64,000 nucleotides of DNA, taken from Lytechinus pictus. Lineage: Eukaryota. The translations under genes were made by a program, and so were the position numbers. A model generated the notes under the pieces. The model worked only from the letters and a program-made list of their open reading frames with translations, had not been told where the DNA came from and ran no database searches. The stretch is taken from the NCBI RefSeq assembly GCF_037042905.1, contig NC_087247.1, positions 11,418,148 through 11,482,147 on the forward strand, given 5' to 3'. Shown here one piece after another: positions 4,872 through 59,060 of this stretch (the first letter of the stretch is position 1; the number at the start of each line of letters is the position of its first letter).

Positions 4872-5567
4872 ATGAGTTACCTGTCAAACCCTCTGTTGAC
4901 GGGTTCATTGTCGTCTGGTCTAACAGCAACAAAGCGAAAGGCAAGGGATGATGGCTGCAGTCAAGCGTCGGTCCCAAGCAAGCAGACGTCCACTGGAATG
5001 TCCCTCCAAAAAAGCAGCCTCTTTGGAAGCTCCCTGCTTGGTGGTGTCTCGAAGAAAGATGGCAAGTCCCAATTTAACCTGGGCATGAAGTCATCTAGTC
5101 TGGGCACCAAGTCCCCACTGATTGAAAACAAGCTGCTCTCTTCTGCAACAGCCAATACTGGTTTGCATAGTAAGCTTCAGGGCAGCTCTGGAAGATCCCT
5201 TCTAGCAGGCGGAAGCTTGCTATCGATGGGCAGCTCTCTCTCATCATCATCCTCTTTATCAGCCTCAGGGTACGGCAGCGTCTTGAAGGGTTCCCAGAAG
5301 ACCCGCAGCTTGAGCCGTAGCAACAGCACCCAAGCCGAGGAGTCCAAGACCAAGAAGATCAAAGCACAGCATCTTCCAGAGCAGTCGAAGGAGGACAATG
5401 TCATTGACCCAACCCTTACCACGTGTGAGCTGCCAGACTACGATTTCTCACGACAGCTTCCAGTTGCAAAGCCAGCTGTGCAGGAATATGATCACCAGTT
5501 TGAGAAGCTGGACATGGCCAAAACTCTGACGACAAAGCCAGGGGAAAACTACTCAACAAAATTAAAG
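4872..5567 (+). CDS. TEP1: TEP1-like exon 1 (putative first coding exon; Ser-rich N-terminal region)
   Basis: ATG with A at -3 and an in-frame upstream stop at 4851. 232-codon ORF MSYLSNPLLTGS...DPTLTTCELPDYD...ENYSTKLK ending at donor AAG|gtagag, phase 0 into the next exon. Low-complexity, so homology is weak. Confidence 0.45.
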
Positions 5568-5939
5568 GTAGAGTATTAATTAAAAAATTCATCTATTCAA
5601 CTTATCAGGCCAAGCTAAATACATTGTGTTTACTTTTTTTTTAAATGAGGCATCTAACTCATCTTATAAGAAAGATTCATAGTACATCTCCATTAGCAAT
5701 CATGACTATACATTATGCATTCTATAAGATCATTTCTTGAAGCAATTTTGTCAATCATTTTGAGAAACAATATCAGATTGATTTAAAGAAATTTAAATTG
5801 TTAAGGGTTATTGTAATATCCTTCAACTTGCTTTGTATTTCATTCAACTGGAAATATACATGTTCATGTTATTTGTTTTGAAAAGTTATGAAATAGCTAT
5901 GAAATAATGTAGCTTATTGCAAGTATTTTGATTCAACAG

Positions 5940-6074
5940 CAACAGTTCATCAATGCTGTTAGTGCCTCCCTGATCGGTGGCCCAAACTTTCATGAGCGTG
6001 GAGATAGCACAAGAAAGAATATCAACAGGCAGGCCACTTCCATCATCAATGAAGATCCTGAATTTATTCTAAAG
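5940..6074 (+). CDS. TEP1: TEP1-like exon 2 (start of TROVE region)
   Basis: Acceptor ttcaacag|CAACAG, donor AAG|gtgagc. QQFINAVSASLIGGPNFHERGDSTRKNINRQATSIINEDPEFILK, compare human TEP1 LLEPEFILK. Confidence 0.7.
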
Positions 6075-7653
6075 GTGAGCAAAGAGAATTACTCCTGCAG
6101 AAGGATTCCAAATGTTTGGAGGGAAATTGAAGGGTGATACGACATTTTCTCCTGGGACGATTGCTCCGGGGCTTGATTTCGTCTAAGGTGTAGAGTTAGG
6201 GTTAGGGTTGCTATAGGGTTTTATGTTGGGTTTAGGTTAAGCTTAGGGTAGGGCATAGTGTTAAACCTTGGGTTGAAGTTGGTTATTCGATTAGTGTGTG
6301 GAATTTAGAGCGGAGCAATTGTCACCGGAGCGATGCCTTGATTTATATATTTCAACTTATTGTGACATTAGGCTGAAATTGTGAAAAAGAAGTATGGTAA
6401 TCTATTTTTTAAAGATGTTTAGGAAGTGTCAACTGTCAAAGTATGAGGAATATAAGAATATGTTTTAGTGACAATTACCGTATGTTCTGTATCTGATTAC
6501 TTAATATTTGCTTTTACAGAATGTTGTCATGTTTTTTATTATTTTTTTACTTTGATAGCTACATGCAGGAACTTTTTTATTTCATCTGATTGCATAACGC
6601 CAGGACATGGTTGCTTTAAACTGAGTATCTAAGTCAATTTTCCCCATTCAAAGCATGTATGTTTCAGATGATTCCATGTGTTGTAATGTGTACATAGCTG
6701 TGCATATTGCATTGGTTCACTTTTATGGCTGATGCAAGGCTTTGAAATACACTACACCCCTTAAATTGCAACCTTGATGTCAAAAGTTGTGCAAGGCTTG
6801 AATGCTGGGAATTGCCATTATAATAATTCTACCATCTTCAGGGAGCCTTTTTTTTTGTATTCAGTGATTTTAATGCGGAATGCTATTCATTGCCTATTAT
6901 TGATTACGTTGATCTCCTAATTTATGAATGACCTCCCTGATATTGAAAATTTTCCTGATAAAATTGGCAGAATAACAGAATAGGTAATTGTTACAAGTAT
7001 CAGATTACCCAATTAACACATCATTACACATTGCTGGGATTTGTTTTCTTCCTTGTACTACTTTCATGCAATGAATGTTAGGGCTATGATTTAAGTATGA
7101 TTGGTCAAAACATGTCTTGTATCTAATAGTTACTGTCCGGTGACATAACATTGCTCGTGCGACATTTGCTCCATATTAGGGTTTATTTGGTTTTGGAGGT
7201 TAGAATTTATGATTGGCTTAATAATAATGTGCAGATTTTCCATCAGAGCAATTGTCGCCGGAGCAAATGTTATGGAACCTACTGTCCATGGTCTAATATT
7301 TGATGAACAATCTTAGAAATGCATATACTGTCTTTTAATATTTCTTGGGTTTTCCATATTTTTTTAGTTCAGACAATTTAAACGTGGCAATGAAGGTTAT
7401 GATTGTATAGATATTTCAATTTATTGCCAATTATTTAACTGATAGAAACAAATGATACGCAGGCCTACTCACAGAGACTATCTTTGTTTTTCACAGATGA
7501 CTTGCAACCTGAAGGTCATTCTGTATGTCATGAATAGGTTTTTATAAACTGCAAACATAAATGAAAAATGCTCACTCTTAAGAAAAAAAAAGAGTAGGCC
7601 TAATATTTATGTTCCAGTGTTAAATATAGTATGTGTCATTTGCCTTTAATCAG

Positions 7654-7815
7654 GTTGCACTGTATACGAGGAAGGAGTTGAATATACGTACCACAGCCAA
7701 TTTCCTGCTAGCTCTTGCGGCCATGACCCCCGAGTGCCGACCTTTTCTCAGGAAGTATTTCAGCTCCAGCATTGCCCTGCCATCTGATTGGATAGATGTA
7801 GCAGAACTTTACCAG
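7654..7815 (+). CDS. TEP1: TEP1-like exon 3 (TROVE)
   Basis: VALYTRKELNIRTTANFLLALAAMTPECRPFLRKYFSSSIALPSDWIDVAELYQ. Human: ASLYARQQLNVRNVANNILAIAAFLPACRPHLRRYF..LPSDWIQVAELYQ. Acceptor aatcag|, donor CAG|gtaatg. Confidence 0.9.
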
Positions 7816-7904
7816 GTAATGATGAATTTGGAACAGATTTTTTCTTAATTTCGAAATCACAAACTGTCAACCAGTGTATAATACATTGATCTATTGGGAG
7901 GTTG

Positions 7905-7990
7905 GGAGGGAGAAAAATTGATATATGGATGGATAGATACATAGATGGGTGGATGGATGGATGGATAAATGGATAGATAGATATGTAGTG
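7905..7990. repeat. (GGATGGATA)n microsatellite
   Basis: gatggatggatagatacatagatgggtggatggatggatggataaatggatagatagat. Confidence 0.9.
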
Positions 7991-8327
7991 CATCTCTTGA
8001 AAAAACAGAACCAAGAATTATCTACGATTTATCATATCTTAATCACAAATACAATAGACACACGACCCACCATTGTAAAGCTTAGAGTCTCCTCTTCGAG
8101 CTGGTATAACTTTAGATAACTCTTTTTTCATGCATGAGTGAGTAAAAACAAAATTTTTGAAGAAAGGATACTAAAAGTCACTTGTTGGGCAGTATCTGAA
8201 TTTCACAAAGAAAATCACTTGTCTAGAAAGTGTAATATCTACTCTTTAATGTGACACTTCAATCGAAGAAAGTGGTCAAGAAATGAATATGTAAAGACAA
8301 ACTTATTGTTGATTTCTCTTCTTACAG

Positions 8328-8424
8328 ACATTCCATGATAAGAATATCAACTACGGATCCCTGCCATCGGCCCTCCGCAAGGCGATGATTGATCGATTTC
8401 CTCGCTTTGATCAGTACCAGCTTG
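8328..8424 (+). CDS. TEP1: TEP1-like exon 4 (TROVE)
   Basis: TFHDKNINYGSLPSALRKAMIDRFPRFDQYQL. Human: LPACLRTAMTDKFAQFDEYQLA. cttacag| and TTG|gtaagt. Confidence 0.85.
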
Positions 8425-8626
8425 GTAAGTGTTTTAGGTTATTATTGAATCAAGCAATAGAATACACTCAAGTCGCGAGCAAAATATCTGTTTGCCAATT
8501 TAATCAGGTAGGAACTTTTATTGGATTTGACACCTTTGCTATTACCATGATCTTCCATTCTTGAAAAGTTGAAAGCAACAGCATTTTCCTTTTTAAATTT
8601 TATATTTAGAAATGAATAGGGATTGT

Positions 8627-8815
8627 TGGGAGGCGCGGTAGCTCAGTCGGTAGAGCGGGGATTTGTATTGCGGTGACCCGGGTGTGATTCCCACTTGGTG
8701 CGCTAGTGCCCTTTGGTAAGGCATTAATCCTCAGTACCAGGTCCTTTGGAGAGGACCTTAAGCTGTCGGTCCTCTGGTTGCTTGCTTACAAGCATTCATG
8801 CTTTCTTAGCAATCA
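8627..8815 (+). mobile_element. tRNA-derived SINE, family A
   Basis: tRNA-like head GGCGCGGTAGCTCAGTCGGTAGAGCG...GTGTGATTCCCAC (A and B boxes) followed by a non-tRNA body. The stems do not close as a real tRNA. Confidence 0.7.
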
Positions 8816-10088: not shown

Positions 10089-10122
10089 CCATTCTTTAAC
10101 ATTTGATGCTTTGCTTCTGCAG

Positions 10123-10342
10123 CAAAGTACAACAAGGACAAGAAGAAGAAGAAACCCGCTGCCAAAACCGACAAGCCAGCCAAGGAGGAGAACCTCCCGG
10201 ATGATAGAGATGATGGAGATAGTGAGAACAGTGATACGGATGAGGAGGAGATGGAGAGATTGAGCTTTACCCTCAAGCAGTTGATCCGGAAGCTTCACAT
10301 CAATGATCCAGTAGACAGTGTGATGTGCCTCCTTGGAAAGAG
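10123..10342 (+). CDS. TEP1: TEP1-like exon 5 (TROVE, Lys-rich linker)
   Basis: AKYNKDKKKKKPAAK...LSFTLKQLIRKLHINDPVDSVMCLLGKR. Human: AKYNPRKHRAKRH...FTLKKLVQRLHIHKPAQHVQALLGYR. ttctgcag| and AG|gtaaaa. Confidence 0.85.
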
Positions 10343-10874: not shown

Positions 10875-11035
10875 GGTACCCAGAAGACATGGAGTCCTTC
10901 TACCAGAGCCGTCTTCCCGGTACGTGGGACGCCGAGAGGGCCGGTAAGAGGATGAAGCTACCTACCCCAGAGACCTGGGAGACGCAGGTCTCGCTGAAGG
11001 GCAATAAAGCACCAGTCTGGGAGCAACTTATTGGT
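10875..11035 (+). CDS. TEP1: TEP1-like exon 6 (TROVE)
   Basis: YPEDMESFYQSRLPGTWDAERAGKRMKLPTPETWETQVSLKGNKAPVWEQLI. Human: YPSNLQLFSRSRLPGPWDSSRAGKRMKLSRPETWERELSLRGNKASVWEELI. Confidence 0.9.
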
Positions 11036-11099
11036 AAGCTGAATGCTCCCCAAGGGAGTGGAGATGGTGTGCATAGGAAGTATTATATTTGATTAGTTG

Positions 11100-11440
11100 T
11101 CTATTAAGTGCCTACCAGTGAAAAGCAAATAAAAAATTCTTCACACTCTAGAGAACAGGGAAGCATGGGTCTCGGTGAAAGAAATTAAAGCACCAGGTTG
11201 GGAACAAGATGCATGCTCCCCAGGGAGTGTGGATGTTTGTGCATCTAGGAAATCTTGTATTGGTGTATTCAGCACCTACATGTACCATTGAAAAGTAAAG
11301 ATAAAAAATTAACAAGCTTCAGTAATTTTCAGCTCGGATTAAAGTGCAACTGCCATTCATGGCCATGCTGCGCAACCTATGCAACTCGATTGCCACCGGG
11401 ATCAGTTAAGATTAAAGTCTAACATTTGATTAATATGTCT
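11100..11440 (+). repeat. Degenerate tandem duplicate of the exon 6 3' end, intron, and exon 7 5' end
   Basis: 11150-11290 aligns to 10960-11100 (gcaggtctcgctgaagggcaataaagcaccag... versus gcatgggtctcggtgaaagaaattaaagcaccag...). 11320-11400 (aactgccattcatggccatgctgcgcaacctatgcaactcgattgccaccgggatcagttaag) copies the exon 7 start. Confidence 0.8.
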
Positions 11441-11451: not shown

Positions 11452-11652
11452 ACAACAAGAAACTGCCGTTCATGGCCATGCTGCGCAACCTGCGCAACAT
11501 GATCGCTGCCGGGATCAGTGAGAAGCACCACAAGTGGGTCCTCTACAAGCTGACCGACCGAGGCTCGGTGGTCTACAGCAAGCAGTTTCCTTTCCGGTTC
11601 TTCTCGGCTTACGAGGTGCTTCAGAGCATGGAGCGTGAACTGGAGAAAGCAG
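11452..11652 (+). CDS. TEP1: TEP1-like exon 7 (TROVE core)
   Basis: DNKKLPFMAMLRNLRNMIAAGISEKHHKWVLYKLTDRGSVVYSKQFPFRFFSAYEVLQSMERELEKA. Human: ENGKLPFMAMLRNLCNLLRVGISSRHHELILQRL..SRQFPFRFLNAHDA. Confidence 0.9.
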
Positions 11653-11879: not shown

Positions 11880-12420
11880 AATTTTACGTCTGAAAGGGTT
11901 GACCTCCAAAACATCTTTTGAGGGGCGATGCTTACGTGACCTTTCAAGCACTTCCGTAGATAATACATTGTCATGCAAAACATCTTTTGAGGGGCGGTGC
12001 TTACGTGACCTTTCAAGCACTTCCGTAGATAATGCATTGTCATGCACTCATCGTAGTTTCTTTTTTGCGATGTAGTGCTTTGATTGGGTTTGATTGGCAA
12101 GTCACCAAGGACACAATACCGCATTCGCTCAGGAATTCGAATTCAAATCACAGTTTTCGAGTGAACGTGTGTATGGTACAATGATTCTAAAGACGAATTG
12201 CAATCATTGATTACGTGACCTTTCAAGCACTTCCGTAGATAATACATTGTCATGCACTCATCGTAGTTTCTTTTTTGCGATGTAGTGCTTTGATCGGGTT
12301 TGATTGGCAAGTCACCAAGGACACAATACCGTATTCGCTCAGGAATTCAAATTCAAATCACAGTTTTCGAGTGAACGTGTGTATGGTACAATGATTCTAA
12401 AGACGAATTGCAATCATCAT
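11880..12420. repeat. Intronic tandem duplication (64-bp and ~215-bp units)
   Basis: caaaacatcttttgaggggcg.tgcttacgtgacctttcaagcacttccgtagataat.cattgtcatg occurs 3 times. cactcatcgtag...gaattgcaatcat occurs twice. Confidence 0.85.
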
Positions 12421-35713: not shown

Positions 35714-35846
35714 GTTTCCACTCGTCTGAAGGCGATGTCGCACACCATAGGGACACTCCTCCAGGAGGTACTGAAAAGACTGGAGGATGATCATGGTCAG
35801 GATACGATTACTGTGGCCCTTGCATTGCTGGTCTCTACAAGAGATG
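35714..35846 (+). CDS. TEP1: TEP1-like exon 24
   Basis: VSTRLKAMSHTIGTLLQEVLKRLEDDHGQDTITVALALLVSTRDG. Human: VSERLRTLPATVPLLLQHILSTLEKEHGPDVLPQALTALEVTRSG. Confidence 0.85.
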
Positions 35847-36243: not shown

Positions 36244-36424
36244 GATTATATGAAGAGGATCTGCACTGCCTGCTCAGTCTACACAGGCAACTCAAGGAAG
36301 GCAAGTACACCTACAAACAAGTGATAGGTACAGCCCTGGGTCCTGAGGTCATGCTACCTCAAGCTGAATTGTCAAGATTAGTACGAGGGATCAAATCTCT
36401 GCTGGCACCTACGGGTGAACACAG
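36244..36424 (+). CDS. TEP1: TEP1-like exon 25
   Basis: LYEEDLHCLLSLHRQLKEGKYTYKQVIGTALGPEVMLPQAELSRLVRGIKSLLAPTGEH. Human: LTVDQLHGVLSVWRTLPKGTKSWEEAV...LVQSLRSLLGEG. Confidence 0.8.
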
Positions 36425-37792: not shown

Positions 37793-37902
37793 TGACCATA
37801 GATTAAGGGTCAGTCATGGTCAGATTAGCCAGGCCATTGTCCAGCGCTACATGAAGGGGGCTGCCAGTGAACTCCAGATCAGAACTCACGCATTGCTTGC
37901 AG
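37793..37902 (+). CDS. TEP1: TEP1-like exon 26
   Basis: SDHRLRVSHGQISQAIVQRYMKGAASELQIRTHALLA. Phase 2 in, 1 out. ttgcag| and CAG|gtaatg. Confidence 0.7.
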
Positions 37903-38523: not shown

Positions 38524-38723
38524 GTTACTTCAATCACCTATCAAGGACCAAGAACGTCGCGTCTCCTTGGTCTACAGACTATCCCCATGCTCTCACTGAG
38601 ATGCCGTATCATCTAGTACAGGCTGGATTGTTCGCTGAACTCAAGAATGTACTGTCGGATCCGTTCTTCATCCAGGCCAAGTGCTCCTCGGGGCTGACGG
38701 CGAGTCTCCTGGAAGATTTCCAG
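38524..38723 (+). CDS. TEP1: TEP1-like exon 27
   Basis: GYFNHLSRTKNVASPWSTDYPHALTEMPYHLVQAGLFAELKNVLSDPFFIQAKCSSGLTASLLEDFQ. Human: PEALGDLPYHLLQSGNRGLLSKFLTNLHVVAAHLELGLVSRLLEAH. Confidence 0.85.
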
Positions 38724-38724: not shown

Positions 38725-39055
38725 TGAGGGGGTCATGATGGTGGTGGCGAAGATGATGGCTTTGATGGTGGCGGTGTTTTTAGCGGTGGTGGTGTTGGTG
38801 GTGGTGGTGGTCATGATGGTGGTGGTGGTGGTGCTGATGCTGGTGCTGGTGATGATGAAGGTGATGGTGGTGGTGATGATTGTGATGATGATGGTGTTTG
38901 TGATGAGATGATGATGATGATTTTGATAATGATGATGATTTTAATGATTACAAACATAATGAAGATGATGTTGGTGGTGATTTTCGTGATTTCACTAATA
39001 ATGATAATTATGATGGAGATGATGATGATATTGAAAATAAGAAGTAAATTTTTGA
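38725..39055. repeat. (GGT/GAT)n microsatellite immediately after the exon 27 donor
   Basis: ggtggtggtgatgatg... for ~330 bp. Gives spurious poly-Val/Met ORFs on both strands. Confidence 0.95.
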
Positions 39056-39128: not shown

Positions 39129-39410
39129 GCTAACACATCCACCACATCCAAGGCAATCCTTCGGGAACGCGAGAAATTCCTGACCAACCCGCTCATCACC
39201 GGCTTGCGCTCTTTCATCTCTCGACACCTCCACATCCTGACCCTCTGCCCAGGGTTGCTATGGCAACAGGCAATGAACGAACCAAATAACTCCCTCGTCC
39301 GCGATGCTATGCTGGAATCTGCGGGATCGGGAGGGAAGGGTATGGTGGCTTGGAGGAACAAAAGAGAAACGGCTGATGAATGCGCCATGACCCTGACAGG
39401 GTTCACTGAT
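39129..39410 (+). CDS. TEP1: TEP1-like exon 28 (pre-WD40 region)
   Basis: ANTSTTSKAILREREKFLTNPLITGLRSFISRHLHILTLCPGLLWQQAMNEPNNSLVRDAMLESAG...TLTGFTD. Human: EADVAVFRTFLRQQASILSQYPRLLPQQAANQPLDSPLCHQASLLS. 94 codons, phase 0. Confidence 0.85.
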
Positions 39411-40270: not shown

Positions 40271-40366
40271 GCTGTGCTATGTGTAGCTATAGCTCCTGGA
40301 GCTCAGGTCTTTGCTGTCGGGACCAAGAACTGTCAGCTCAAGCTCTTTGAGATGGAGACCGGCAAG
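40271..40366 (+). CDS. TEP1: TEP1-like exon 29 (first WD40 repeat)
   Basis: AVLCVAIAPGAQVFAVGTKNCQLKLFEMETGK. Human: AVAFSTNGQRAAVGTANGTVYLLDLRTWQ. Confidence 0.85.
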
Positions 40367-40987: not shown

Positions 40988-41112
40988 GAATTAAAGAGCT
41001 TCATTGGACATTCTGATGCTGTGACATCTTGTTGCTTTGTTGGTAAAAGCCGTCTTGTCTCCGCCTCGCGTGACAAAACACTGAGTCTTTGGGATGTTGA
41101 GCAGGGCTTCAG
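40988..41112 (+). CDS. TEP1: TEP1-like exon 30 (WD40)
   Basis: ELKSFIGHSDAVTSCCFVGKSRLVSASRDKTLSLWDVEQGF. Canonical GH...WD repeat. tattcag| and CAG|gtaagt. Confidence 0.9.
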
Positions 41113-41587
41113 GTAAGTGGCTCCACTTAAAAGCGGAATGAATTTACAAAAAACAAAACCATGACAACTACCAAAAACATTCCATGAATCATTGATGAGT
41201 GCAAAGTTGGCCTTAAAAAGGGGAATATTTCTGGAATCCTGTGATAAAAGTCTGTGAATATAACTAGTATTACTTTTAAAGTTAATGATTTTTGTTATTT
41301 ATTAGACACCATGCAAAGAGGTAAAGTTCGCCTCTGGTTGACTTCTCATGAAGGATACTGGAACACTATTTTAATGGCACTGTAAAGCATTTGAACATAG
41401 ATAAGCAAAACTTACATCTGGGTAAAATTTCTCTTTTCTTGAGGTCCAAAATTTCAATGATATTGAACAGAAAGTTTGGTACATACATGATGGTCTATTA
41501 GGAATTCATAAGATTATGTCGCATTATGCAATATGCTTTGACAAAACTCTACGAAATCTCACACTATTCCTGCCATCACCCCTCTAG

Positions 41588-41843
41588 GGTCAACACACTC
41601 AAGGGTCACAGGGGGCTCGTCAGCGGGTGCATCTCCGACTCCAAGGGGGTCAACCTGGCCTCCTGCGGCTGGGATTGCCGGGTCCTGATCTGGGACGGCC
41701 GCAGCGGCAAGCAGACCTCGGACATCACCGAGCCGCGCCCCATCAGCTGTCTGTCCTACCATCCGGAAGGGAAGCTTCTCGTCACCGGGTCGTGGGATGC
41801 CACGCTGAAAATCTGGGACACCTTCAACAAGAAGAGAGTGGCC
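41588..41843 (+). CDS. TEP1: TEP1-like exon 31 (two WD40 repeats; very high GC3)
   Basis: VNTLKGHRGLVSGCISDSKGVNLASCGWDCRVLIWDGRSGKQ...CLSYHPEGKLLVTGSWDATLKIWDTFNKKRVA. Human: LNCVAFHPEGQVIATGSWAGSISFFQV. Confidence 0.9.
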
Positions 41844-42173
41844 GTAAGTACACGTTGACATTGGATTATAATAATTCTGATAATGATGCAACTTATAGCG
41901 CCGACAAATCCACACTGCAGAGTGCTCAAGTACCCAACTGTAGCCAACTATCTTTATGGTGCACTGGTGTTTCACTTCAAGAAAATTCTGCAATGTACCC
42001 CTTTACTACCATTGGGTTGAGTGCAGTACAATGTGGACAAATTTCTTGCTGAAGAAAATAAAGGTACCCATTTACTACACCATTTACTAAACCTGGCTTG
42101 TGCAGGAGTCGTCAGGTAGACCACTCACATGGCATTATTAGAAATAACCAATTTATGTTTGAACACTTTGCAG

Positions 42174-42293
42174 ATTCTGCGCGGTCACCGTTCTTCCGTC
42201 CGTGCCGTCACCTATTCACCGACTGGTCGTCACATTGCATCTGCGTCACTAGATGGCGCTGTCAAACTCTGGTCGGCAGACACCGGAACACAG
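42174..42293 (+). CDS. TEP1: TEP1-like exon 32 (WD40)
   Basis: ILRGHRSSVRAVTYSPTGRHIASASLDGAVKLWSADTGTQ. 40 codons, phase 0. tttgcag| and CAG|gttagt. Confidence 0.9.
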
Positions 42294-42803: not shown

Positions 42804-42902
42804 GTCGGCAGTCTGTGCGGCCATTCCCAGCCAATCAACCACATTGCTTTCTCGCAGAGCGGGAGGGAGCTGGTCACTGTGAGCAATGACCACAAGACTA
42901 AG
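42804..42902 (+). CDS. TEP1: TEP1-like exon 33 (WD40)
   Basis: VGSLCGHSQPINHIAFSQSGRELVTVSNDHKTK. Phase 0. ttcacag| and AAG|gtataa. Confidence 0.85.
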
Positions 42903-43786: not shown

Positions 43787-44050
43787 GTTTGGTCAGGCAA
43801 CCTCGGTAAACAGCTGGCTACCTTCAAGGGCAAGGACCAATCAGCATCCACCCAAGCCACCTTCAGCACCGACGGCGAGTTCGTTGCTATGGGATACCAT
43901 TCTGGAGAGGTCAAGGTAATCGAAGTCGCCAGCAAGCGCGAGGTCTTTGCCTCGGTGCTCAGGGAGTCGCGGGTCAAAGGAATCGCCTGGTTGGACGATA
44001 GCAAGGATGGCTTGGCCGTCTTGGTGGGTTACGAGAGCGGACATGCTGTG
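43787..44050 (+). CDS. TEP1: TEP1-like exon 34 (WD40)
   Basis: VWSGNLGKQLATFKGKDQ...FSTDGEFVAMGYHSGEVKVIEVASKREVFA...GIAWLDDSKDGLAVLVGYESGHAV. Human: VWSGSLGRPRGHLGS...LSPDGDRVAVGYRADGIRIYKI. Confidence 0.9.
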
Positions 44051-44741: not shown

Positions 44742-44917
44742 ATAATCAAGGGGGTTGAGAAGTCCAAGCCAACTGTAGTCCCACTCAAAGCAAACCACGC
44801 AGCCATCACCAGCCTGGCTTACTCCAACGCCACCCACACAGCCGCTGTCACCTACGACAACATGTGTGTCGCCCTTTGGTCCTATCCGTTGGCTGCCAAA
44901 GCCGGCGCAAAAAATGG
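44742..44917 (+). CDS. TEP1: TEP1-like exon 35 (WD40)
   Basis: IIKGVEKSKPTVVPLKANHAAITSLAYSNATHTAAVTYDNMCVALWSYPLAAKAGAKN. gatag| and TGG|gtaggt. The longer ORF on the opposite strand is rejected. Confidence 0.75.
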
Positions 44918-45309: not shown

Positions 45310-46520
45310 ATTAAAGGACAAGTCCACCAGTTCAAAAAGGTTATTTTGATAAAAAAAAAGAGGAAATTCCAACAAGCATAACACTGAAAATTTCCTTAAA
45401 AATTGGATTTTAAATTTTTGAAAATTTTTAAGTTTTTAAAGTTTCTCTTAATTTTACGAACACTTATATGCACATCCTGATCCGTATGCAAATGAGGAAA
45501 CTGATGATGCCATCCATTTTTTGTATATTATTATATGAAAATGAAATATTCTAATTTTTCTCCTCATTGTCAACTAAAACAATGATTAATTCCTCCCTGA
45601 ACATGTGGAATTAGCATTGCTTAAAGGAGAATGAAACCCTTGAAACCAGCTGAATCCATATCAAAGAGAAAAATCAAAGAAACATATTGTTGAAAGTTTG
45701 AGGAAGATTGAATGAATAATAAGAAAGTTATGAGCATTCGAATATTGAGATCACTAGTGCCATGTAGATCCTCCCAACGGCAATGCGACCAAGATCTGTG
45801 ATATCACACACGTACAACTCCCTCATTACTTTAGTACTTATTTCACTTTCTCACTTTTATAGAGTCTATATCACAAGGTGAGGTGTTCTAGCTCTTTATG
45901 AGATGACAAGTACAGAGGTTTCACAACATTATATCATTGATGAATCGTTTGTCATATGATTAGAATGAGCAAAAAGGGATGTTTTGGGGTATATTTTCAG
46001 TGTCCAAATGGGAGAGTTGTACGTGTGTGACATCACAGATCTTGGTCGCATTGCCAATGGGAGGATCTCCATAGCATTAGTGATCTCGACATTCAAATGC
46101 TCATAACTCTTTTATTGCTAGTCCTATTTTTCTCAAAGTTTTGTTGATCTTATTCTTTGATTTTTCTGCTTTCACAAAACCTAACTTGCTCCAAGAGTTT
46201 CATTCTCCTTTAATACTATATGGTTCAGTCAAATTGGTCCTTATTGTCTAATCTGTAAAAAATGGAATGTTGTATAATTCAAACAATAAAAAACGAAATC
46301 GAAATGGTGAGTGAGGAACATCATAGACTGTCTCATTTGCATGTCACAGAGTTGTGTATATTTCTGTTTTGTGAAAAATAATGCAAAACTTTAAAATGTC
46401 ATACATATAACTTTCTTAATTTACATCCGATTTTGATGACATTTTCAGCGTTATGCTAGTTTGAGTTTTCTCTATTTATTCTAATCAACTTTTTTCTGGG
46501 GTGGACTTGACCTTTAATGA
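45310..46520. mobile_element. Nested inverted-repeat complex: outer pair 45310-45510 / 46290-46520 around a compact foldback element 45603-46230
   Basis: 45630-45800 (ggagaatgaaacccttgaaaccag...atcctcccaacgg) is reverse-complementary to 46010-46225, the same family as the 33961 arms. 45320-45510 (ggacaagtccaccagttcaaaaagg...) is the reverse complement of 46290-46510. This family also occurs at 23130-23340. Confidence 0.75.
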
Positions 46521-46739: not shown

Positions 46740-46842
46740 AATCCCACCTACAAACCTACTGCATCCTAAGTGTAATGGAGTCATAACCTGCTGTACGTTC
46801 AGCCCAAGCGGGGATAGGCTGGTTCTAGGAACGAGAGATGCT
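46740..46842 (+). CDS. TEP1: TEP1-like exon 36 (WD40)
   Basis: IPPTNLLHPKCNGVITCCTFSPSGDRLVLGTRDA. Human: LRGHEGPVSCCSFSTDGGSLATGGRDRS. Confidence 0.85.
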
Positions 46843-47668: not shown

Positions 47669-47788
47669 ATGTTGTTCGTTTACAAAGTATGGGGATTAAA
47701 TCCAGAATCTCAGCCTGCCCTTCATCTTGATAACTGTCACAAAGATTGGATCAATTCCTGTGCTTGGTCACCAGCCACTGATGTCTTG
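47669..47788 (+). CDS. TEP1: TEP1-like exon 37 (WD40)
   Basis: MLFVYKVWGLNPESQPALHLDNCHKDWINSCAWSPATDVL. Human: PVLIHSFPACHRDWVTGCAWTKDNLL. Confidence 0.9.
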
Positions 47789-48289: not shown

Positions 48290-48670
48290 AATAATAATTA
48301 TATTATATTGGATGGCTCAGAATGGGATACCAGTGATGTTCCACAAGTTAGGGCCAATAATGCACGAATCATAGATGAGGGCAATATTACATTATTTACA
48401 TTATTATCATTATTATTTTTGATAGCCTAGATTGGCATACCGGTGATATTCCACAAGTAAGGGCCATTATTGCATAAATTATAGATGAGTGCAATATTAT
48501 TGTTATCATCATCATCTTCATTATCTTCATCATTATCATCATCATATTTATCATCATCATTGTTTCATCATCATCACCTTCATCATCATCATCATCTTCA
48601 TCATTACCATCACCATCATCACCATCTTCATCATCACCATCATCATCACCACCATCATCATTGTTTATTA
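48290..48670 (+). mobile_element. Short interspersed element (tattatattggatggctcagaatgg...gaatcatagatgag.gcaatattat) with a ~190-bp (CAT)n tail
   Basis: The element is at 48290-48480 (internally duplicated) and again at 52895-53030. The (catcat)n tail at 48480-48670 ends 30 bp before the exon 38 acceptor. Confidence 0.7.
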
Positions 48671-48701: not shown

Positions 48702-48809
48702 GCCACTGCATCCAACGATTCTACCATTAAACTATGGGACATGAAAACGGGAAAGGTCAAATCTCACCTCAAAGGTCATCAGGCAGCTGTCTACTCTGTT
48801 GCTTTCTCT
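48702..48809 (+). CDS. TEP1: TEP1-like exon 38 (WD40)
   Basis: ATASNDSTIKLWDMKTGKVKSHLKGHQAAVYSVAFS. Human: ISCSSDGSVGLWDPESGQRLGQFLGHQSAVSAVAAV. Confidence 0.9.
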
Positions 48810-49210: not shown

Positions 49211-49435
49211 TGTGGAGCGTTGTGGCCCAGTGGATTTGTCTCCGGACTTTGAAACAGAGGGTCGTGAGTTCGAATCCCAGCCATGGCATAATTTCCTTCG
49301 GCAAGAAATTTATCCACATTGTGCTGCACTCGACCCAGGTGAGGTGAATGGGTACCCGATAGGAAGAAATTCCTTGAATGCTCGAGCGCCCGATTAAGGT
49401 AGCCGTGCTAAAGCCGGGGTAATAATAATAGCAGG
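49211..49435 (+). mobile_element. tRNA-derived SINE, family C (plus)
   Basis: GTGGAGCGTTGTGGCCCAGTGGATTTGTCTCCGGACTTTGAAACAGAGGGTCGTGAGTTCGAATCCCAGCCATGGC, then body, then ...gctaaagccggggtaataataata. Confidence 0.85.
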
Positions 49436-49986: not shown

Positions 49987-50958
49987 TGTCTTTATAGATG
50001 AGTGGTCCTTCTGTACAGGTGGTTGCTGAAGTAGGTTCGGCTGTTGCCGTGTAGATTTGAAAAATTCATTGATGTCTTGCTATGACTCCTCATAACACTT
50101 CTCCAATGCCTTCTTCTTGTCGGGTCACTTCACAAGACCTGTCCAGTGGAGGGTACAAGATCTGGCTCTGGAGTTAAAGGACTCCAGATCATCGGCAGTG
50201 CACGGACCAGAAGGTGTTGTATCGTCTGATCCGCCCCACACTCGCAAGCAGTGTCCCCATCTATGTTGTAGCCCCATTTCTGCATAAGGACTTTTCACCA
50301 TCCTGTCCCAGACCGTAGGCGTTTAAGACATAGCCAGGTTGGCCATTCCTTACTTGAACCCAGGGAGAGTGACTCGCTAGGTCCATAGGAAAGCTTGTGC
50401 GTCACAGACTGGAGGTGGTTGGACCACCTGCCTGAATGCAGCATCAAATCCTTGATCAAACACGAAAGATGGAGCTTAGCAACACTAGTCCTCCTGATCA
50501 TACATGACAATATTCAATTTCAAGTCTAATGGGGTATTGCACGAAACTTGCGATCAATTGCAAGTATATTTTCTGTCTCGAAATGAATTATAAGTTTTGA
50601 AATTAATTGTGAATTTGCAATTGATTTCTTATCTGCTTCGTAAGACATGCAGTGTAATCGGATTTGCTACAATTAAACTTGATCTATCAATTGTAAACTT
50701 GCAACAGAATATTTGCAATTGATTGCAAGTATTTTCTTGCAACACCCCCTAAGAAATGATTCAGAGTTGCCCATATCAGCTCTCGACAAGTGAAATCTGC
50801 CACATAGGATAAGCTTTGACATTGCAGTGGATGGGGATTTTGGGGGGCTCTTTTTTTTTATTGTCCTGTGGGCTATTTTGATAATTTTAGGGGGACATCA
50901 CCCCGAACCCCCATGTAATTGTTTTCCCTGGTCTGAAGTAGTCATGGGAAGAGTAATG

Positions 50959-51215
50959 TGTGGAGCGTTGTGGCCATGTGGATAAGTCCTCTGACTTGGA
51001 AACAGAGAGTCGTGGGTTCGAATCCCAGCCATGGCGTAATTTCCATTAGCAAGGAATTCGTCAAAATTGTGCTGCACTCAACCCAGGTGAGATGAATGTG
51101 TACCTGGCAGGAATTATTCCTTGAAATGCCACCGCGCTGTAAAAGGCTCCAGGGCTAAAGCCAGGGTAATGATATCCAAGTCCTTTGGAAGTGCATTTGG
51201 ACGTTTTGACATAAT
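50959..51215 (+). mobile_element. tRNA-derived SINE, family C (plus), second copy 1.5 kb downstream of the first
   Basis: TGTGGAGCGTTGTGGCCATGTGGATAAGTCCTCTGACTTGGAAACAGAGAGTCGTGGGTTCGAATCCCAGCCATGGCG ... gctaaagccagggtaatgatatccaagtcctttgg. Confidence 0.85.
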
Positions 51216-51374: not shown

Positions 51375-51525
51375 CATGGATGTGTTGTAACGGGATGCCT
51401 GGATGCATCGGTCAAGGTCTGGTCTCATCGTGGTGTGGAGATCACCACTCTCTATGGTCACTCACAGAAGGTCAACAAGGTGGACATTCATATACCAGAC
51501 AGAGGAAGCGATGTTCCCGCAATAG
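51375..51525 (+). CDS. TEP1: TEP1-like exon 39 (WD40)
   Basis: HGCVVTGCLDASVKVWSHRGVEITTLYGHSQKVNKVDIHIPDRGSDVPAI. Human: EHVVSVSRDGTLKVWDHQGVELTSIPAHSGPIS. Confidence 0.85.
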
Positions 51526-51892: not shown

Positions 51893-52083
51893 ATGACGAC
51901 AGCGATGATGAAGGCAAGGACGACACGCCTGGAGCCAACTGGTCAGATATGATGGCAGAAGAAGAATGGAAGAATCGTCATGGGAAGAAGAAGTTGGACA
52001 AAGACGCTAATATCAACCTGGAAGAGATTATGATTGCATCGGCCAGTGATGATGGTACCACACAGCTCTGGAAACCCCTACAG
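51893..52083 (+). CDS. TEP1: TEP1-like exon 40 (acidic insert plus WD40 end)
   Basis: DDDSDDEGKDDTPGANWSDMMAEEEWKNRHGKKKLDKDANINLEEIMIASASDDGTTQLWKPLQ. Human: VTVGLDGATRLWHPLL. ggtag| and CAG|gtgagg. Confidence 0.8.
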
Positions 52084-52660: not shown

Positions 52661-54321
52661 TCCTTGCTTATTGAATCTGTTTCTCTAAGGTCTCAAATTG
52701 GGCTTCTTTAGTTGGATCTGACAAGGAGAATATCATGAATTTTAATTCAGGCATTACTGTGAGTCTCTGCCTGTAAAAGCACACAGCAAATTATATATGT
52801 GCATGTTCACTTGCACTCCGATATTATTTTACTTCTTTAAAAGTTCCTAATAGGCCTGAGTCGGTCACTCCCCCCCCCCCTGAACTCAATATGTACAGTT
52901 GTATATTATATTGGATGGCTCAGAATGGAATATCAGATATATTCCAAGAGTTAAGGCCAATATTGCATGAATCATAGATGAGTGCAATATTATTATTATC
53001 ATTATCATCATCACCATCATATATTGGCCCTTAGGAGTGGATTAATTTCTGGTATTCCATAAAATAAAGCCATCCAATGTAATTATTACTATCTATCCCC
53101 CCCTAAAGTAAAAAAATTGATTAGGCAAGTCATGTCACTAATTCCTACAATCAGTAAATATCGCCTCACTCCATAAAATCAATTTGATTGTTACGACTCA
53201 CATGTAAACTCACTATGACGTCATTGCGCTCTATGCTGTGCAACGCATGGCATTAATTGTTTTACGCATTGTATTTTTCGCACATGGGCATTAGACTATT
53301 GAATACGGTCTCGTATTGAACAGCAAGATTTGTACAGAAGCCTATGGGATATTTATCGGATATTGGTCCTTTGTTCAATATGCTGTCGTATTGAACAGGC
53401 AAATTATGCAGACTAAGATACGTGTTTTGTGATGCATCGCAGAAACACTTTATTAGATAATAATCCTCAATACTTCTTACAAAATTTGTTTTTGGGGAAA
53501 ATGAAATATCAATGATTTTTAAACATTCTAAATGCTCAAATTCCTGAGATCCATTTGACAAAAGACTTTTGAAGTGACCCAGCCCTAGTCCCTACTATAA
53601 ATGTTGTATGGAGCCAAATGGTGATTCTTGCCCGCTATGACCATCATTAACCTTTCAACCTTTGAGCATTGATGTACTTGGCATGTATTTATGTATTATA
53701 TACTGATGCTTCATTAAGTTAAGTTTCTTTCACAGATAAGAAAAGCCCTTCCATTCTTATCGACAGAAACGGCATCCTCTTTCATGATCGTGCAAATATA
53801 TAGCTTTAATCGGCCATGTTCATACATGTACCTCCAAATCAAATGTCTCGGCAAAGTACATGTCTTGAATAATTTGAATGCTATTTTTCTATTTATCATT
53901 TTTATAATTTTCAGTATCTCATATTCATTTGCATGAATGTATATCAATTGCAAATTGTGAATGCTTTTTCTTTGTGAGGGGAGGGGTAGCGAAAAAGTTA
54001 CATGTACACCCGGGCTCGGGGATGACTTCACTCCCCAAATACTCAACAGAGCCGTGGAGAATAAACAAGATAAATAAGGAAGGTAGTACTGTCACGGTTA
54101 TGAACATCAAATATTTGTACGATAATTTATGTCATTAAACAATAAGATGTTCCATGTGTCAAATTCACATCAAATATAAAAATATTTTATTCTAAGATCG
54201 CGTCGCAGACCCATCATAAGTTGTGCAGTGGCCTTTATATGTAAAGCATTCTGTGTTTGTTTGGTATATTCTGTACAGTATTATCATTCAACCTAATGTT
54301 CCCCTCTTGACCTTCTTGCAG

Positions 54322-54441
54322 AGTAATGAATTGACCACCCTGATTGGTCACTCAGACCGGGTGTTGAGTGTTGCTATGGCAACCAGCGGTCAGGTGGTCA
54401 CTACCTCCATGGATTGCACAGTCAAGATCTGGAAGCCCCAG
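54322..54441 (+). CDS. TEP1: TEP1-like exon 41 (WD40)
   Basis: SNELTTLIGHSDRVLSVAMATSGQVVTTSMDCTVKIWKPQ. Human: VCQTHTLLGHSGPVRAAAVSETSGLMLTASEDGSVRLWQVP. Confidence 0.9.
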
Positions 54442-54887
54442 GTATGTTATTTCTTAAAGCCATTTTTTGAACAAATATTTCAAGACAATTTTCAGCTATT
54501 TACTAATTGTATTCTCTGTTGATGTATTATTCAAACATTCTCGATCAGGTGGGTGTTTCATAAAGCTGTTCTTGAGTTATGAAAGAATTTGAATGCTGGT
54601 ACGAGAATAACTAAATTGAGAAAGCTTAGTGTTATTTTGTATTCCAATGATAGTTAATCGCATGCAAAAGAAATCAAATTGATCAGCAAAATTTTGCTTT
54701 TTAATTGTTGATCCACATTGCCAGTTGATTTCGCGTGAAATGAAACCAAAAATGTTTATATTCTGATGATAAATTTAGGAAGATGGCCAGGGAAAACCTA
54801 TATTGTTGTATTTGTTTTTGTTGTCATTATTGTATTATGATTTTTTTTAATTAATATTATAAATCACCTTCTTTTCTTTTTGAACAG

Positions 54888-54982
54888 CTTTCTCCAGACC
54901 TCGTCCATATAGGAGCTCATGATGGCGAGGTATCAGCCGTTGCCATGTCAACCAAGACCAACTTCGCCATCACTGCAAGCAG
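54888..54982 (+). CDS. TEP1: TEP1-like exon 42 (WD40)
   Basis: LSPDLVHIGAHDGEVSAVAMSTKTNFAITAS. Human: CIPRSSAAVTAVAWAPDGSMAVSGNQAG. Confidence 0.85.
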
Positions 54983-55742
54983 GTCAGTGCCCTGTTTCAT
55001 AAAGCATCGTGATCGATCACAAATTTTCTCAGCCAATCACATGTCACCATTTCACAAGCTTATAGAATTTCATGTTTTAACTTTTATTTATAATTTTTTT
55101 TATAGCATGGTTTGGAAAATATTGCAAATCGATGGCCTTGAAAACCGTTAATCAGTGAAATAGTCTGTAACTAGTGTCACTTCATAACTTTATGGAGATT
55201 TTACCTTTACATGCTTCTGTTTTGAAGTACAACCTTTCATTTTGATTATATAATTTTTGTTATCAAGACAATAACTTCACTGTAGAATCAAATGATTTTC
55301 AATCCACTCATTAGTAAGTTTTGGGTGTCACAGTTGCTCTGAATAGCATTGTCTCATAAAAGTGTATAAAAATTACCAGGACTGATTACTTTGGGGGGTC
55401 TCAAAGTCAAAGGTCTGAGTGGTCATTTTGTCCATTTAAATAACTTGTCCTTAGGATAACTTGAGAACCATTAGAAGGATCAACTTCAAACTAATCTCAT
55501 AAGTGCATATTGGAATGACGATGATCTGAACATTGGGGTGCAGATGATTTAATTATACTTGGATTTCTTGAAGCAATAGTGATGGATTTCCCAATTCCAT
55601 TATCATTTAAAATAAAATTCTAAAAAAATCTATTTACCTCTCATAATTCTCGAGTGCTGTTGACAATAAATTGTGGCAGCTCTTGCTTCTGTCCCTCATT
55701 TATATTTTTATTAACAATCAACCCTTTTGTTTGTGACATCAG

Positions 55743-55824
55743 GAATGGCAGTGCTTGTCTGTGGAAGGTGAATGGGTCTAACAAGGATGAAGGCCAATCA
55801 ATGACACTCCTTCATTCGTGGATG
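55743..55824 (+). CDS. TEP1: TEP1-like exon 43 (WD40)
   Basis: NGSACLWKVNGSNKDEGQSMTLLHSWM. Phase 2 in, 0 out. catcag| and ATG|gtaagt. Confidence 0.7.
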
Positions 55825-56576
55825 GTAAGTAAAACAAAATATTATCTTTTCATTTACCATCATATTGTTGTTGTTATTTTTAATAAATTCATTACATAAC
55901 TGCCAACTTTTCCTATTGGAATATATCTATTTTTGGTAAAGGTAAATTGCCATTTTAATCATTGTGTTCCTATTTCTGTGAAATTTTTATGTGGTATTGA
56001 ATGGGAAATTCAAGAATATTCCTAATTCTGGAAATTTCTTGGTAATTTGTTTCCATTTCTTGGCGCTCAGGATTTGCAGGTATGAGAAGATCAGAATTAC
56101 CCTAGCAGGCATGATATTCTCCCGATTTTCAATCGGATATCTGATTTTTTTTCTTTTCCTGTTCATTGTCAATGACCTCAATGTTTTTGTGATTTCATAT
56201 TGTAATAAACGATCATGTTTTGAAAAACAAACAATTTGTTGGGGTTGAATTATTTTCGGTCGATGTAAAGCTTTGAGAGATTCGGTCATATGTTTTATGA
56301 AGGGACTTTAACATGAGCGGGTGAGAAGCTTGTACCGTGGTTTGTGTAGAAATGCATTGTGTGTGTGCGCATGTGAGGACAACAGGGGTGTGTTGGATTT
56401 TATTTTGGCTGAATTGTAACGATGAAGGTAGGCCTCTAGGCCTTGTCGTATACATTGTCGCTTTTATTGCTACTGAATTGATTGGAATGAAAAAGTTTGA
56501 ACTTTCTTTGAAGCAAAGTCCATTATGACATATGTGTTTAATTCATTCGATATTCCTCACCCTCTGTCCAAACCAG

Positions 56577-56710
56577 GCTGCGGAGTGCGCCGTCAATGCA
56601 GTGTGCTTCATTGGAAAGCATATGACCTTCGCCTTGGGTAAGGATGACGGCGTCATCACACTGTGGAAGATACAAGAACTCAAGGACAAACCCGGATCAT
56701 ACACAACCGT
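56577..56710 (+). CDS. TEP1: TEP1-like exon 44 (WD40)
   Basis: AAECAVNAVCFIGKHMTFALGKDDGVITLWKIQELKDKPGSYTT. Donor CGT|gtaagt chosen because the alternative CC|gtgtaa puts a stop in the next exon. Confidence 0.8.
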
Positions 56711-57429
56711 GTAAGTAATGTAATCTATGGTCTCGGAAACAAGCCAACTTCTAAGATCTATCTATGCATTAACAGACGACTATTAATTGTACCCAAGTTG
56801 AAAATACACTGTACAATCAGTTGCTGGATTTATTGCTAGAATTATTTCTGGATTTATGTAGAAAATATTAACTCCACATACCTGGCCTTGCCAATAGTTC
56901 CCATTTATATACTATTAACCTACAAACTAAGGTCCTGTGGCGACTGTTCACCCTTACCAGGCTTTATACCCTATTCATTAATTGTTATTAACTGTTTACT
57001 TTCCTAATGTATGTACTCTCCTTATCAATGTTACCATTTTTTGTTTTGTTCTTTTGCTGAATTATGTATCTATCTTGTATTTCCACATTTGTTATGTCTT
57101 ACATGTTTGTAAACCTTGTACCTATCTGCTTACACAGAAGGTGTCCTAGGTTATTTATTGCAAATATGCTGGCATTAAACCAATAAAGTGTATTTGCTTG
57201 AGAAAAAAAACCCCAAAATTTTGTATTTCATTTGGCTTATAATTTCAATTCAGTTGAGTTTCAATGACCACTGTGTATCATGGGGACCTTCCTGATTTTT
57301 TTTTTGGGGGGGGGAGGGTCACATATACCAAATGGTTTATTATTATGTTGAATGTTTCTTCTTCGTTCGAGCATTGATATATTTTTAGAAGGAATGATAG
57401 CCCAAACCTATCTTCTTTTTTTTCCTCAG

Positions 57430-57597
57430 GAAAGGGAACAATCGTTTCTTGAATGTGCACTCCTTCACCTCCATGCCTAGCCCGGTGACCTGTCTCAGGT
57501 ACGATGATGCTCAAGACATCCTGTACGTCGGCACGTGGAGCTCGGTTATTACCCTAAGGGGTTTCACCTCCAACAAGATCAAACAGAATGCAAAGGG
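57430..57597 (+). CDS. TEP1: TEP1-like exon 45 (WD40)
   Basis: KGNNRFLNVHSFTSMPSPVTCLRYDDAQDILYVGTWSSVITLRGFTSNKIKQNAK. cctcag| and GGG|gtaagt. Confidence 0.8.
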
Positions 57598-57609
57598 GTA
57601 AGTAATGCA

Positions 57610-57906
57610 AGGATGAAAGAGTATTGGTGATGATGGTTGTGGTGGTAGTGGTGGTGGTGGTGGTTGTCTTCATGATGATTTTGATAATGATGATTGCGAT
57701 GGTGATGATGATGATGATGACGACGAAGATTACGACAAAGATGACGATGATGACGATGATGATGTTGATGATGATGATGACGAAGATTACGACAAAGATG
57801 ACGATGATGATGTTGATGATGATGATGATGAAGATGATGACGATGATGATGAGAAGATTAATATGATGACGATTATGATGATGATGATGAGGATGACGAC
57901 GATGAC

Positions 57907-57946
<40 letters not shown>

Positions 57947-57965
57947 GTGATGATGATTACAGTGA
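57610..57965. repeat. (GAT)n microsatellite, ~350 bp, starting 12 bp after the exon 45 donor
   Basis: gatgatggttgtggtggtagtggtggtggtgg...gatgatgatgatgatgatgatg. Yields the spurious poly-His ORF on the minus strand. Confidence 0.95.
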
Positions 57966-58088
57966 TGACCATGAACAATATGATAATGCATGCCCCCCCC
58001 TCAAATAAAAAAGATTGATCAGGCTAAATATCTTTCAATAATCTAAGTAAATCCATTAATGTAATGATAATTTTTGTTGTCATTCTAG

Positions 58089-58179
58089 TGTACCTGGCTG
58101 GGTATTGGACATGACCTTGGTCAAGGATAAAGGCATAGGAGCATCTCTTACTGATGGCAAGGTGGTGTGCGGCAAGGAG
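58089..58179 (+). CDS. TEP1: TEP1-like exon 46
   Basis: VPGWVLDMTLVKDKGIGASLTDGKVVCGKE. ttctag| and GAG|gtaggt. Phase-consistent. Confidence 0.65.
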
Positions 58180-58886
58180 GTAGGTTTTTCCTCCATCCTC
58201 AGGGGCTGTTTCATCATGGCACAGTCACATTAAAGAAACCGGCTCCAAGCCGACCTACGGACTGTCCTTGAAAATAGTGAAGTAGACTTTGACGGTCTGG
58301 AGTCTGTTTTCCATTGTGACTGTATCATAAAGCTTTTGTAAAGTTATGCATGACTTTACCAGCGACTGGGACTTGTCCTTGAGTGCTAAATTTGAACTAT
58401 GCTTGTATACATTTTATATATTTGATTTTATTTTTGTACGTTTTGTTGTCATCAAGTGATAAAGATCTGATTATGAAGATAATGATTATTATGATCATGA
58501 TAGTGATCTGATCATGAAGATCGTCATTCATATCACATGTTTCATGTGTGTTACCTGTGTGGAATAAGATCTTTTAACAGAACCTCATTGTCTGTCTTTC
58601 ACGTGTATTCAACATGTTCTTTCCATAATAAGAGTTCAGTTTTCATCATGATGGTCATATTGAACATGAGAATTACCGACAGATCACCTAATTCATCTCA
58701 TGATGAATTCAAATTCTAGTTGATTTTATTTTTCTATGTTTTGTTGTCATCAAGTGATAAAGATTCATGTTATAAAGATTATCACTTTCTTATCTTTCTC
58801 CTTCCTGAATATTATATGTATATTATTTAGATTTTACCAATTTCATATGAACCCTTATCAAACAACTTTTTTTTTTTTTTTTACAG

Positions 58887-59060
58887 AAAACGATGGAGAC
58901 GCTTGATATATGTGAGCTGTCTCCGGTCCCAGTCTCCTGGTGTCGCTCCTTGATCATCTCTCCTCCTCAAATTGGCAACATTAGAGGATTCCTGGTTGGA
59001 GATTATGATGGCCATGTGATGCATGTTAGTGACAACAGGGTGGTCAATGTGATCAAACAG
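58887..59060 (+). CDS. TEP1: TEP1-like exon 47 (last exon found in window)
   Basis: KTMETLDICELSPVPVSWCRSLIISPPQIGNIRGFLVGDYDGHVMHVSDNRVVNVIKQ. Acceptor (t)14acag|, donor CAG|gtaaga. No further coding-like segment found to 64000. Confidence 0.7.

Follow-up and report, generated by a model that had tools for sequence, protein, structure and literature searches.

The TEP1 gene of the sea urchin Lytechinus pictus: 47 coding exons, a conserved NADase glutamate and a C-terminal module absent from the present models

Introduction

Which gene occupies a densely exonic stretch of 64,000 nucleotides in the genome of the sea urchin Lytechinus pictus, and does that gene end within the stretch or beyond it? 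The stretch (NCBI RefSeq assembly GCF_037042905.1, contig NC_087247.1, positions 11,418,148 to 11,482,147 of the forward strand; referred to below as the window, with positions counted from its first letter) had been read from its letters alone as a near-complete orthologue of TEP1, the telomerase protein component 1 or vault-associated protein. We set this preliminary description against an exact spliced model, profile searches and the TEP1 proteins of other animals. The content of the window is almost certainly the TEP1 gene of L. pictus, and what is left to weigh is chiefly its 3' end.

Mouse TEP1 is required for the stability of vault RNA and for the association of this RNA with the vault (PMC2193651). 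For sea urchins, an RNA and proteins of high molecular weight have been described in vaults, the gel bands being suggestive of an association with TEP1, and the genome of Strongylocentrotus purpuratus was noted in 2005 to have a TEP1 homologue (PMC550661). Two preprints of 2026 describe the DUF4062 domain as a TIR-like NAD-hydrolysing enzyme (NADase), and report that human TEP1 hydrolyses NAD(P)+ within the vault in a manner dependent on glutamate E1008, that R908 and R976 contribute to this activity, and that R954 lies in the BB loop and points into the active site (10.64898/2026.05.01.722283, 10.64898/2026.09.04.749371). Among the four human DUF4062 proteins, only TEP1 is reported to have hydrolysed NAD+ (10.64898/2026.05.01.722283).

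Gene model and identity

TEP1 lies on the plus strand as one gene of about 54 kb, with 47 constitutive coding exons and a single cassette exon of 69 nt. The 47-exon coding sequence begins with the ATG at 4872 and is closed by a TGA at 59109-59111; it comprises 7,626 nt and encodes 2,542 amino acids with no in-frame stop. The exons are short (median 151 nt), and the 46 introns have a median length of 736 nt, with 4,879 nt for the longest. Phase is continuous throughout, and 45 of the introns are of the GT-AG type. The remaining one is a GC-AG intron, the only one in TEP1 with a non-GT donor, and it starts 3' of exon 23 at 33866/33867 (GAG/gcaagt). The window itself is AT-rich, with a G+C content of about 37%.

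A homology search with the non-WD half of a draft protein as the query yielded full-length TEP1 proteins of many animals. The best match was RefSeq XP_063952437.1 (TEP1-like isoform X2 of L. pictus; P0121), followed by S. purpuratus TEP1. Exon junctions were then set by demanding that the spliced translation equal this reference, and the translated model is identical to it at 2,542 of 2,542 residues. When the reference protein was searched against the window with tblastn, 47 exon-sized blocks were obtained at 97-100% identity. Isoform X1 (XP_063952436.1, 2,565 aa) differs from isoform X2 solely by an insertion of 23 residues, which we mapped to the phase-0 cassette exon at 52690-52758 on the plus strand (VSNWASLVGSDKENIMNFNSGIT). 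This exon has good splice sites, is found in RefSeq isoform X1 only and, lying between exons 40 and 41, adds its residues to the WD region.

We also read the locus with a reference-free exon chainer that relied on generic splice-site position weight matrices, self-trained codon usage and phase bookkeeping, and that allowed GT donors only. The unbroken frame that the chainer returned is 2,418 aa long, with the ATG at 4872 and a donor at 59060 as its two ends, and the coding signal over the TEP1 span is far beyond chance. Measured against the final model, its 54 exons included 39 of the 47 exactly and 6 in part, and missed two (exons 2 and 35); exon 23 was ended wrongly because only GT donors were permitted. 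Nine chainer exons, tiny or serving as odd phase-fixers, were rejected as spurious (7497-7514, 20217-20234, 28620-28658, 30239-30418, 34814-34839, 41306-41320, 45863-45882, 50891-50914 and 56071-56079).

The ends given in the preliminary description coincide exactly with the start ATG at 4872 and the exon 47 donor at 59060, and its 47 exons joined at 46 junctions in continuous phase are matched by the reference-guided model. Its statement that an expected exon between exons 7 and 9 could not be found was mistaken. The exon lies at 13384-13501 and matches the reference at 100% identity; its 118 nt are not divisible by three, so that a model lacking it would lose the frame, which conflicts with the continuous phase claimed in the same description. 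The roughly 50 additional human residues that had been taken to mark the missing exon are instead a matter of linker length. The linker that follows the QFPFRF segment is longer in lamprey, as seen in the alignment, and in some other phyla than in urchins, and the exon 8 linker is of equal length in L. pictus, S. purpuratus and Diadema.

Domain architecture

The exact model was searched against Pfam with curated cut-offs applied. Exon 1 (4872-5567) carries the start ATG and encodes an N-terminal region of 232 aa rich in Ser, Leu and Gly, which sets the urchin protein apart from human TEP1. The TROVE domain (PF05731) scored 366 bits (cut-off 23) over residues 232-629, covering profile positions 20-442 of 442, and is encoded from the junction of exons 1 and 2 to exon 9. 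It starts in exon 2 (5940-6074) and proceeds through exons 3 (7654-7815), 4 (8328-8424), 5 (10123-10342, with a charged insert) and 6 (10876-11033) to its core in exon 7 (11452-11652), where LPFMAMLRNL is found at 11463-11492 and QFPFRF at 11583-11600. Exon 8 encodes a basic linker within the domain, which ends in exon 9 (14076-14256). A vWA-like DUF5920 domain (PF19334; 34.8 bits, cut-off 27) follows at residues 662-829 and is encoded by exons 10 (14931-15083), 11 (19963-20040), 12 (20880-21025) and 13 (22146-22299), the last of which contains its end; exon 14 (22977-23053) is a linker.

DUF4062 (PF13271) was detected at 58.9 bits (cut-off 24.7) over residues 864-973 and belongs to a TIR-like region encoded by exons 15-18. 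The region starts in exon 15 (24334-24510), which holds an 18-residue motif at 24347-24400 and DLRWGV at 24467-24484, continues through exons 16 (24895-25137) and 17 (26315-26428), and ends in exon 18 (26680-26800). The NACHT domain (PF05729; 31.7 bits, cut-off 26.7; residues 1124-1288, profile 3-165 of 167) is encoded by exons 19-22. Its Walker A motif, GKQGCGKT, is intact at residues 1128-1135 in exon 19 (27385-27567; motif at 27535-27558). Exon 20 (29082-29242) is followed by exon 21 (30688-30841), which carries the Walker B-like LIIVIDG at residues 1215-1221 (30755-30775), and the domain ends in exon 22 (31838-32014). NACHT was undetectable in the chainer draft and gave its match only after exons 20-22 had been corrected. 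The preliminary description had called this domain from its Walker motifs, and the profile match on the exact model bears this out.

Exon 23 (33774-33866) precedes a helical part encoded by exons 24-28. Exon 24 (35714-35846) corresponds to a winged-helix region resembling HTH_NWD1 below the cut-off, and exons 25 (36244-36424) and 26 (37793-37902) lead to an APAF1_C-like helical domain in exon 27 (38524-38723), with APAF1_C scoring 30.4 bits (cut-off 22.8) over residues 1489-1600. Exon 28 (39129-39410) passes from the helical domain into the WD region, which begins near residue 1614, forms a propeller part of about 930 aa and takes up exons 28/29 to 47, in agreement with the at least 18 WD40 exons described earlier. 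WD40 (PF00400) scored 255 bits (cut-off 27) within this region, and the TEP1-specific second propeller, Beta-prop_TEP1_2nd (PF25047), scored 254 bits (cut-off 89) over residues 1931-2160.

WD40 repeats were assigned to exons 29 (40271-40366), 30 (40988-41112), 31 (41588-41843), 32 (42174-42293), 33 (42804-42902) and 34 (43787-44050), and the second propeller to exon 34 together with exon 35 (44742-44917). The WD region continues through exons 36 (46740-46842), 37 (47669-47788), 38 (48702-48809) and 39 (51375-51525) to exon 40 (51893-52083), which encodes an acidic insert and a WD blade, and then through exons 41 (54322-54441), 42 (54888-54982), 43 (55743-55824), 44 (56577-56710), 45 (57430-57597) and 46 (58089-58179) to exon 47 (58887-59111). 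Judged from the predicted protein, the domain order of the urchin is the order of human TEP1, and the TROVE, vWA-like, DUF4062/TIR-like, NACHT and WD40 architecture is common to both.

The TIR-like NADase region

The urchin DUF4062 region was aligned with PDB chain 11gz_A ('Telomerase protein component 1', human, 220 aa) over 213 residues, with an E value of 1e-59. Human numbering was obtained by adding 893 to the chain position. This offset places all four residues named for the human enzyme on the expected letters, and the register of the alignment is thereby validated. The catalytic glutamate E1008 corresponds to urchin E973 (GAG, 25058-25060, exon 16), R908 to R872 in exon 15, and R976 to R940 in exon 16; the fourth residue, R954, is considered in the Discussion. 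By analogy with the human enzyme, we infer that the urchin TIR-like domain is a predicted active NADase.

Orthology

Identity to the L. pictus model over the full length was highest for S. purpuratus (84.6%) and Diadema (68.9%). Starfish (Acanthaster, 47.5%), crinoid and acorn worm proteins were at 46-47.5%, followed by amphioxus and scallop (44.8%), sponge (43%), placozoan (39%) and lamprey (38.1%). Among the best 120 relatives listed, every one with a specific name is a TEP1 or TROVE-domain protein, and none is NWD1 or another NACHT-WD protein. Orthology to TEP1 is thus supported by sequence comparison, in that the closest relatives are TEP1 proteins and identity tracks the species tree. The S. 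purpuratus protein (P0122, 2,598 aa) and the TEP1 proteins of other echinoderms, of hemichordates and of amphioxus have the same domain order over their whole length. TEP1 shares the RNA-binding TROVE module with Ro60 (TROVE2) and the DUF4062-NACHT arrangement with NWD1, NWD2 and NPHP3, but unlike TEP1 none of these proteins joins TROVE to DUF4062-NACHT-WD40.

A second L. pictus entry (XP_054750200.1, 2,143 aa; P0123) matches the model at 97.7% identity, with residues 658-999 and three shorter stretches missing. Its C-terminus is the same read-through sequence that closes the model, as described below, with one substitution (VRSLRF for VRSSRF).

The 3' end of the gene

Exon 47 contains a donor after 59060 (CAG/gtaaga), at a conserved boundary that follows the residues '...VIKQ'. 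Both RefSeq isoforms read past this donor for 16 codons (VRSSRFLREEICLSFR) and stop at the TGA at 59109-59111. An AATAAA hexamer, which could be an intronic poly(A) signal, is found on the plus strand at 59170-59175, 59 nt 3' of the read-through stop. The TEP1 proteins of S. purpuratus, Diadema, starfish, acorn worm, amphioxus, placozoan and lamprey carry about 74 conserved residues beyond '...VIKQ', in contrast to the L. pictus models and the window. These residues correspond to Pfam PF25048, which ends in ...GN[VI]Y[LF]L.W, and the S. purpuratus tail scored 83 bits against this profile. The last 90 residues of the L. pictus model match no Pfam family. A PF25048 match on the full L. pictus protein (85 bits, with 0 qualifying stretches) was set aside as summed generic WD similarity, and C-termini were tested alone.

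Repeats and other content of the window

All six motifs quoted in the preliminary description lie on the plus strand, in exons 7, 15, 19 and 21; two of them recur in the window, on which the description was silent. GKQGCGKT is present four times (27535, 27708, 27881 and 28410) because the end of exon 19 is duplicated in a tandem array of six 173-bp copies at 27446-28452 (plus strand). In each unit, the final 122 nt of exon 19 are followed by ~51 nt from the start of intron 19. The pseudo-exon ends formed by copies 2-6 lie in the intron, each with a donor-like gtaagat whose G of GT lies at 27741, 27914, 28092, 28267 and 28443, respectively. GKQGCGKTALL is still encoded in copies 2 and 3, with an in-frame stop at the start, and the later copies are more decayed. 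Since 173 is not a multiple of three and an in-frame stop occurs within the 51 nt of intron 19, any downstream donor of the array would be non-productive. LPFMAMLRNL is found twice (11350 and 11463) as a result of a partial copy of exon 7 in intron 6. This copy (11347-11406, plus strand, ~60 nt from the 5' part of the exon, with the second LPFMAMLRNL at 11350-11379) lies about 50 nt upstream of the exon 7 acceptor, runs into a stop, lacks a GT donor and is outside the coding sequence.

The introns also carry several minisatellites and at least two families of interspersed repeats. One such repeat, of about 230 bp, has copies in either orientation, both intronic and in the 3' flank, at 63299-63532 (plus), 49211-49427 (minus) and 50958-51196 (minus), with fragments at 32198-32279, 42012-42059, 24084-24156 and 35522-35633. 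The copies are 71-94% identical to 63299-63532, and ARAGORN found no tRNA-like gene in this repeat. A second family is represented in the 3' flank by a single copy at 59691-59880, which matches, at 76-88% identity, the unit of an array in intron 23 (34166-34972, tandem unit of 163-192 bp). Further intronic minisatellites are present at 15570-16723 (period ~160/340 bp), 21131-21716 (period 144 bp) and 11907-12417 (period 69/210 bp). Long imperfect trinucleotide tracts at 38785-38950 (GGT/ATG)n, 48505-48661 (ATC)n and 57672-57957 (ATG)n, also intronic, give rise to extended but spurious open frames with a high content of G, D, H and M.

Intron 20 contains an open frame of 162 aa at 29934-30419 on the plus strand (containing MAEQRGEYFADTMSESSSDHSD), which has no Pfam match and is possibly a decayed remnant of a mobile element; the chainer had mistaken part of it for an exon. 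Ten open reading frames of the window that lie outside the TEP1 exons (78-178 aa) gave no Pfam match. A nested gene or noncoding RNA within the introns was not supported, as searches of the window with Rfam at gathering thresholds and with ARAGORN returned nothing.

Discussion

Taken together, the observation made in the preliminary description is confirmed and its interpretation is supported. The product of the locus is a TEP1 orthologue with the human domain order, in which TROVE, DUF4062, NACHT and WD40 all exceed their Pfam cut-offs and which is 100% identical to a RefSeq protein.

Several points weigh against this reading, or against its completeness. Support for the model consists of its identity to a RefSeq prediction that is itself computational (Gnomon), along with conservation across species. 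The N-terminal 231 residues match no Pfam family. Within the TIR-like region, Ser918 of the urchin, whose codon is split by intron 15 (24509-24510 and 24895), takes the place of human R954, the arginine of the BB loop. NADase activity, RNA binding and vault association of echinoderm TEP1 are predictions that draw on mammalian TEP1. Finally, the PF25048 module is missing from both RefSeq isoforms and was not found in the window on either strand or in any of the six frames, either by tblastn or with a profile built from 12 orthologues, so that the last propeller of the modelled protein may be incomplete.

The absence of PF25048 reflects an early end of the window and of the RefSeq model, and not a different family. 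A different family would mean another DUF4062-NACHT-WD40 protein, such as NWD1, NWD2 or an NPHP3-like protein. Weak matches to HTH_NWD1 (24.3 bits) and NPHP3_N (34.4 bits) point in that direction, as do the bacterial and 'nephrocystin-3' fragments that were also drawn by a query restricted to DUF4062 and NACHT. However, the HTH_NWD1 score is below its cut-off of 27, the specifically named top matches are all TEP1, and TROVE (366 bits) and DUF5920 stand upstream of DUF4062 in one continuous frame that also includes the TEP1 propeller (254 bits). With TROVE in the same transcript model, an NWD1-, NWD2- or NPHP3-like identity is refuted, and we regard its chance of being right as negligible. The preliminary description had named a best match to a TROVE-less NACHT-WD protein, for example NWD1, as the outcome that would speak against it, and the best named relatives are instead TEP1 and TROVE proteins. 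A decaying pseudogene, or a duplicate of TEP1 without function, is also very improbable at this locus, if a shade less so. The intronic duplicates of exon fragments (173-bp array, partial exon 7 copy), the absent C-terminal module and the existence of a second, divergent L. pictus entry could all be read in this way. Against it stand an open frame of 7,626 nt with no stop, canonical boundaries at all 46 introns, the identity to S. purpuratus maintained across the full length, and intact catalytic and P-loop residues. We rejected the second entry as a paralogue, as its missing exon-sized blocks and scattered substitutions are what an older partial model or an allele would typically show.

For the end of the TEP1 gene itself, two readings have to be considered. 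The one that we favour, by a little over an even chance, is that the gene extends past 64000, with exon 47 normally joined from 59060 to one or two additional exons for the C-terminal blade, and the read-through end of the RefSeq models being minor or artefactual. The good donor after '...VIKQ', the continuation of the S. purpuratus protein at exactly this point with its 74 conserved residues, and the conservation of PF25048 from placozoan to lamprey all argue for such an extension, and none of the six frames of the window contains the module. Opposed to it are two independent L. pictus RefSeq releases (XP_0639524xx and XP_054750200) that end in the same read-through peptide, the AATAAA only 59 nt past the read-through stop, and the length of the intron that would be needed, which at more than 4.9 kb would be above the TEP1 maximum of 4,879 nt. 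The other reading, a tentative one to which we give appreciable but lesser weight, is that L. pictus TEP1 truly ends at 59108 through intronic polyadenylation at the AATAAA and has lost the PF25048 module. If this were true, the last propeller would have been truncated in a lineage-specific manner not common to S. purpuratus or Diadema. The preliminary description had likewise placed the C-terminal exons outside the window, and this holds for the conserved module, which lies on neither strand, while the RefSeq isoforms still end inside. The lack of PF25048 in the L. pictus RefSeq models may represent a gap in annotation or assembly, and could be of interest to curators.

The gene is an ordinary one and is already annotated. 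TEP1 of L. pictus, its exon structure and both isoforms are known, since the same model is public in NCBI RefSeq, and an urchin homologue has been on record since 2005; the discovery value is accordingly small. The preliminary description considers good annotation of TEP1 rare among invertebrates, which does not agree with the dozens of full-length invertebrate entries (2,300-2,730 aa), which include the present locus. What does deserve mention is that a gene of 47 exons was reconstructed correctly by a reader working from the sequence alone, without tools.

If the roles of mammalian TEP1 carry over to the urchin, the TROVE module would bind the small vault RNA and would recruit and stabilise it inside the vault particle, and the TIR-like domain would convert NAD(P)+ to ADP-ribose (phosphate) and nicotinamide within the vault. 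The NACHT-helical-WD40 part may act as a regulatory switch of the STAND/APAF-1 type. The catalytic glutamate of the TEP1 NADase, defined only recently, is conserved in an echinoderm, and as sea urchin vaults can be purified in bulk, they may provide material in which vault-associated NAD+ hydrolysis could be tested.

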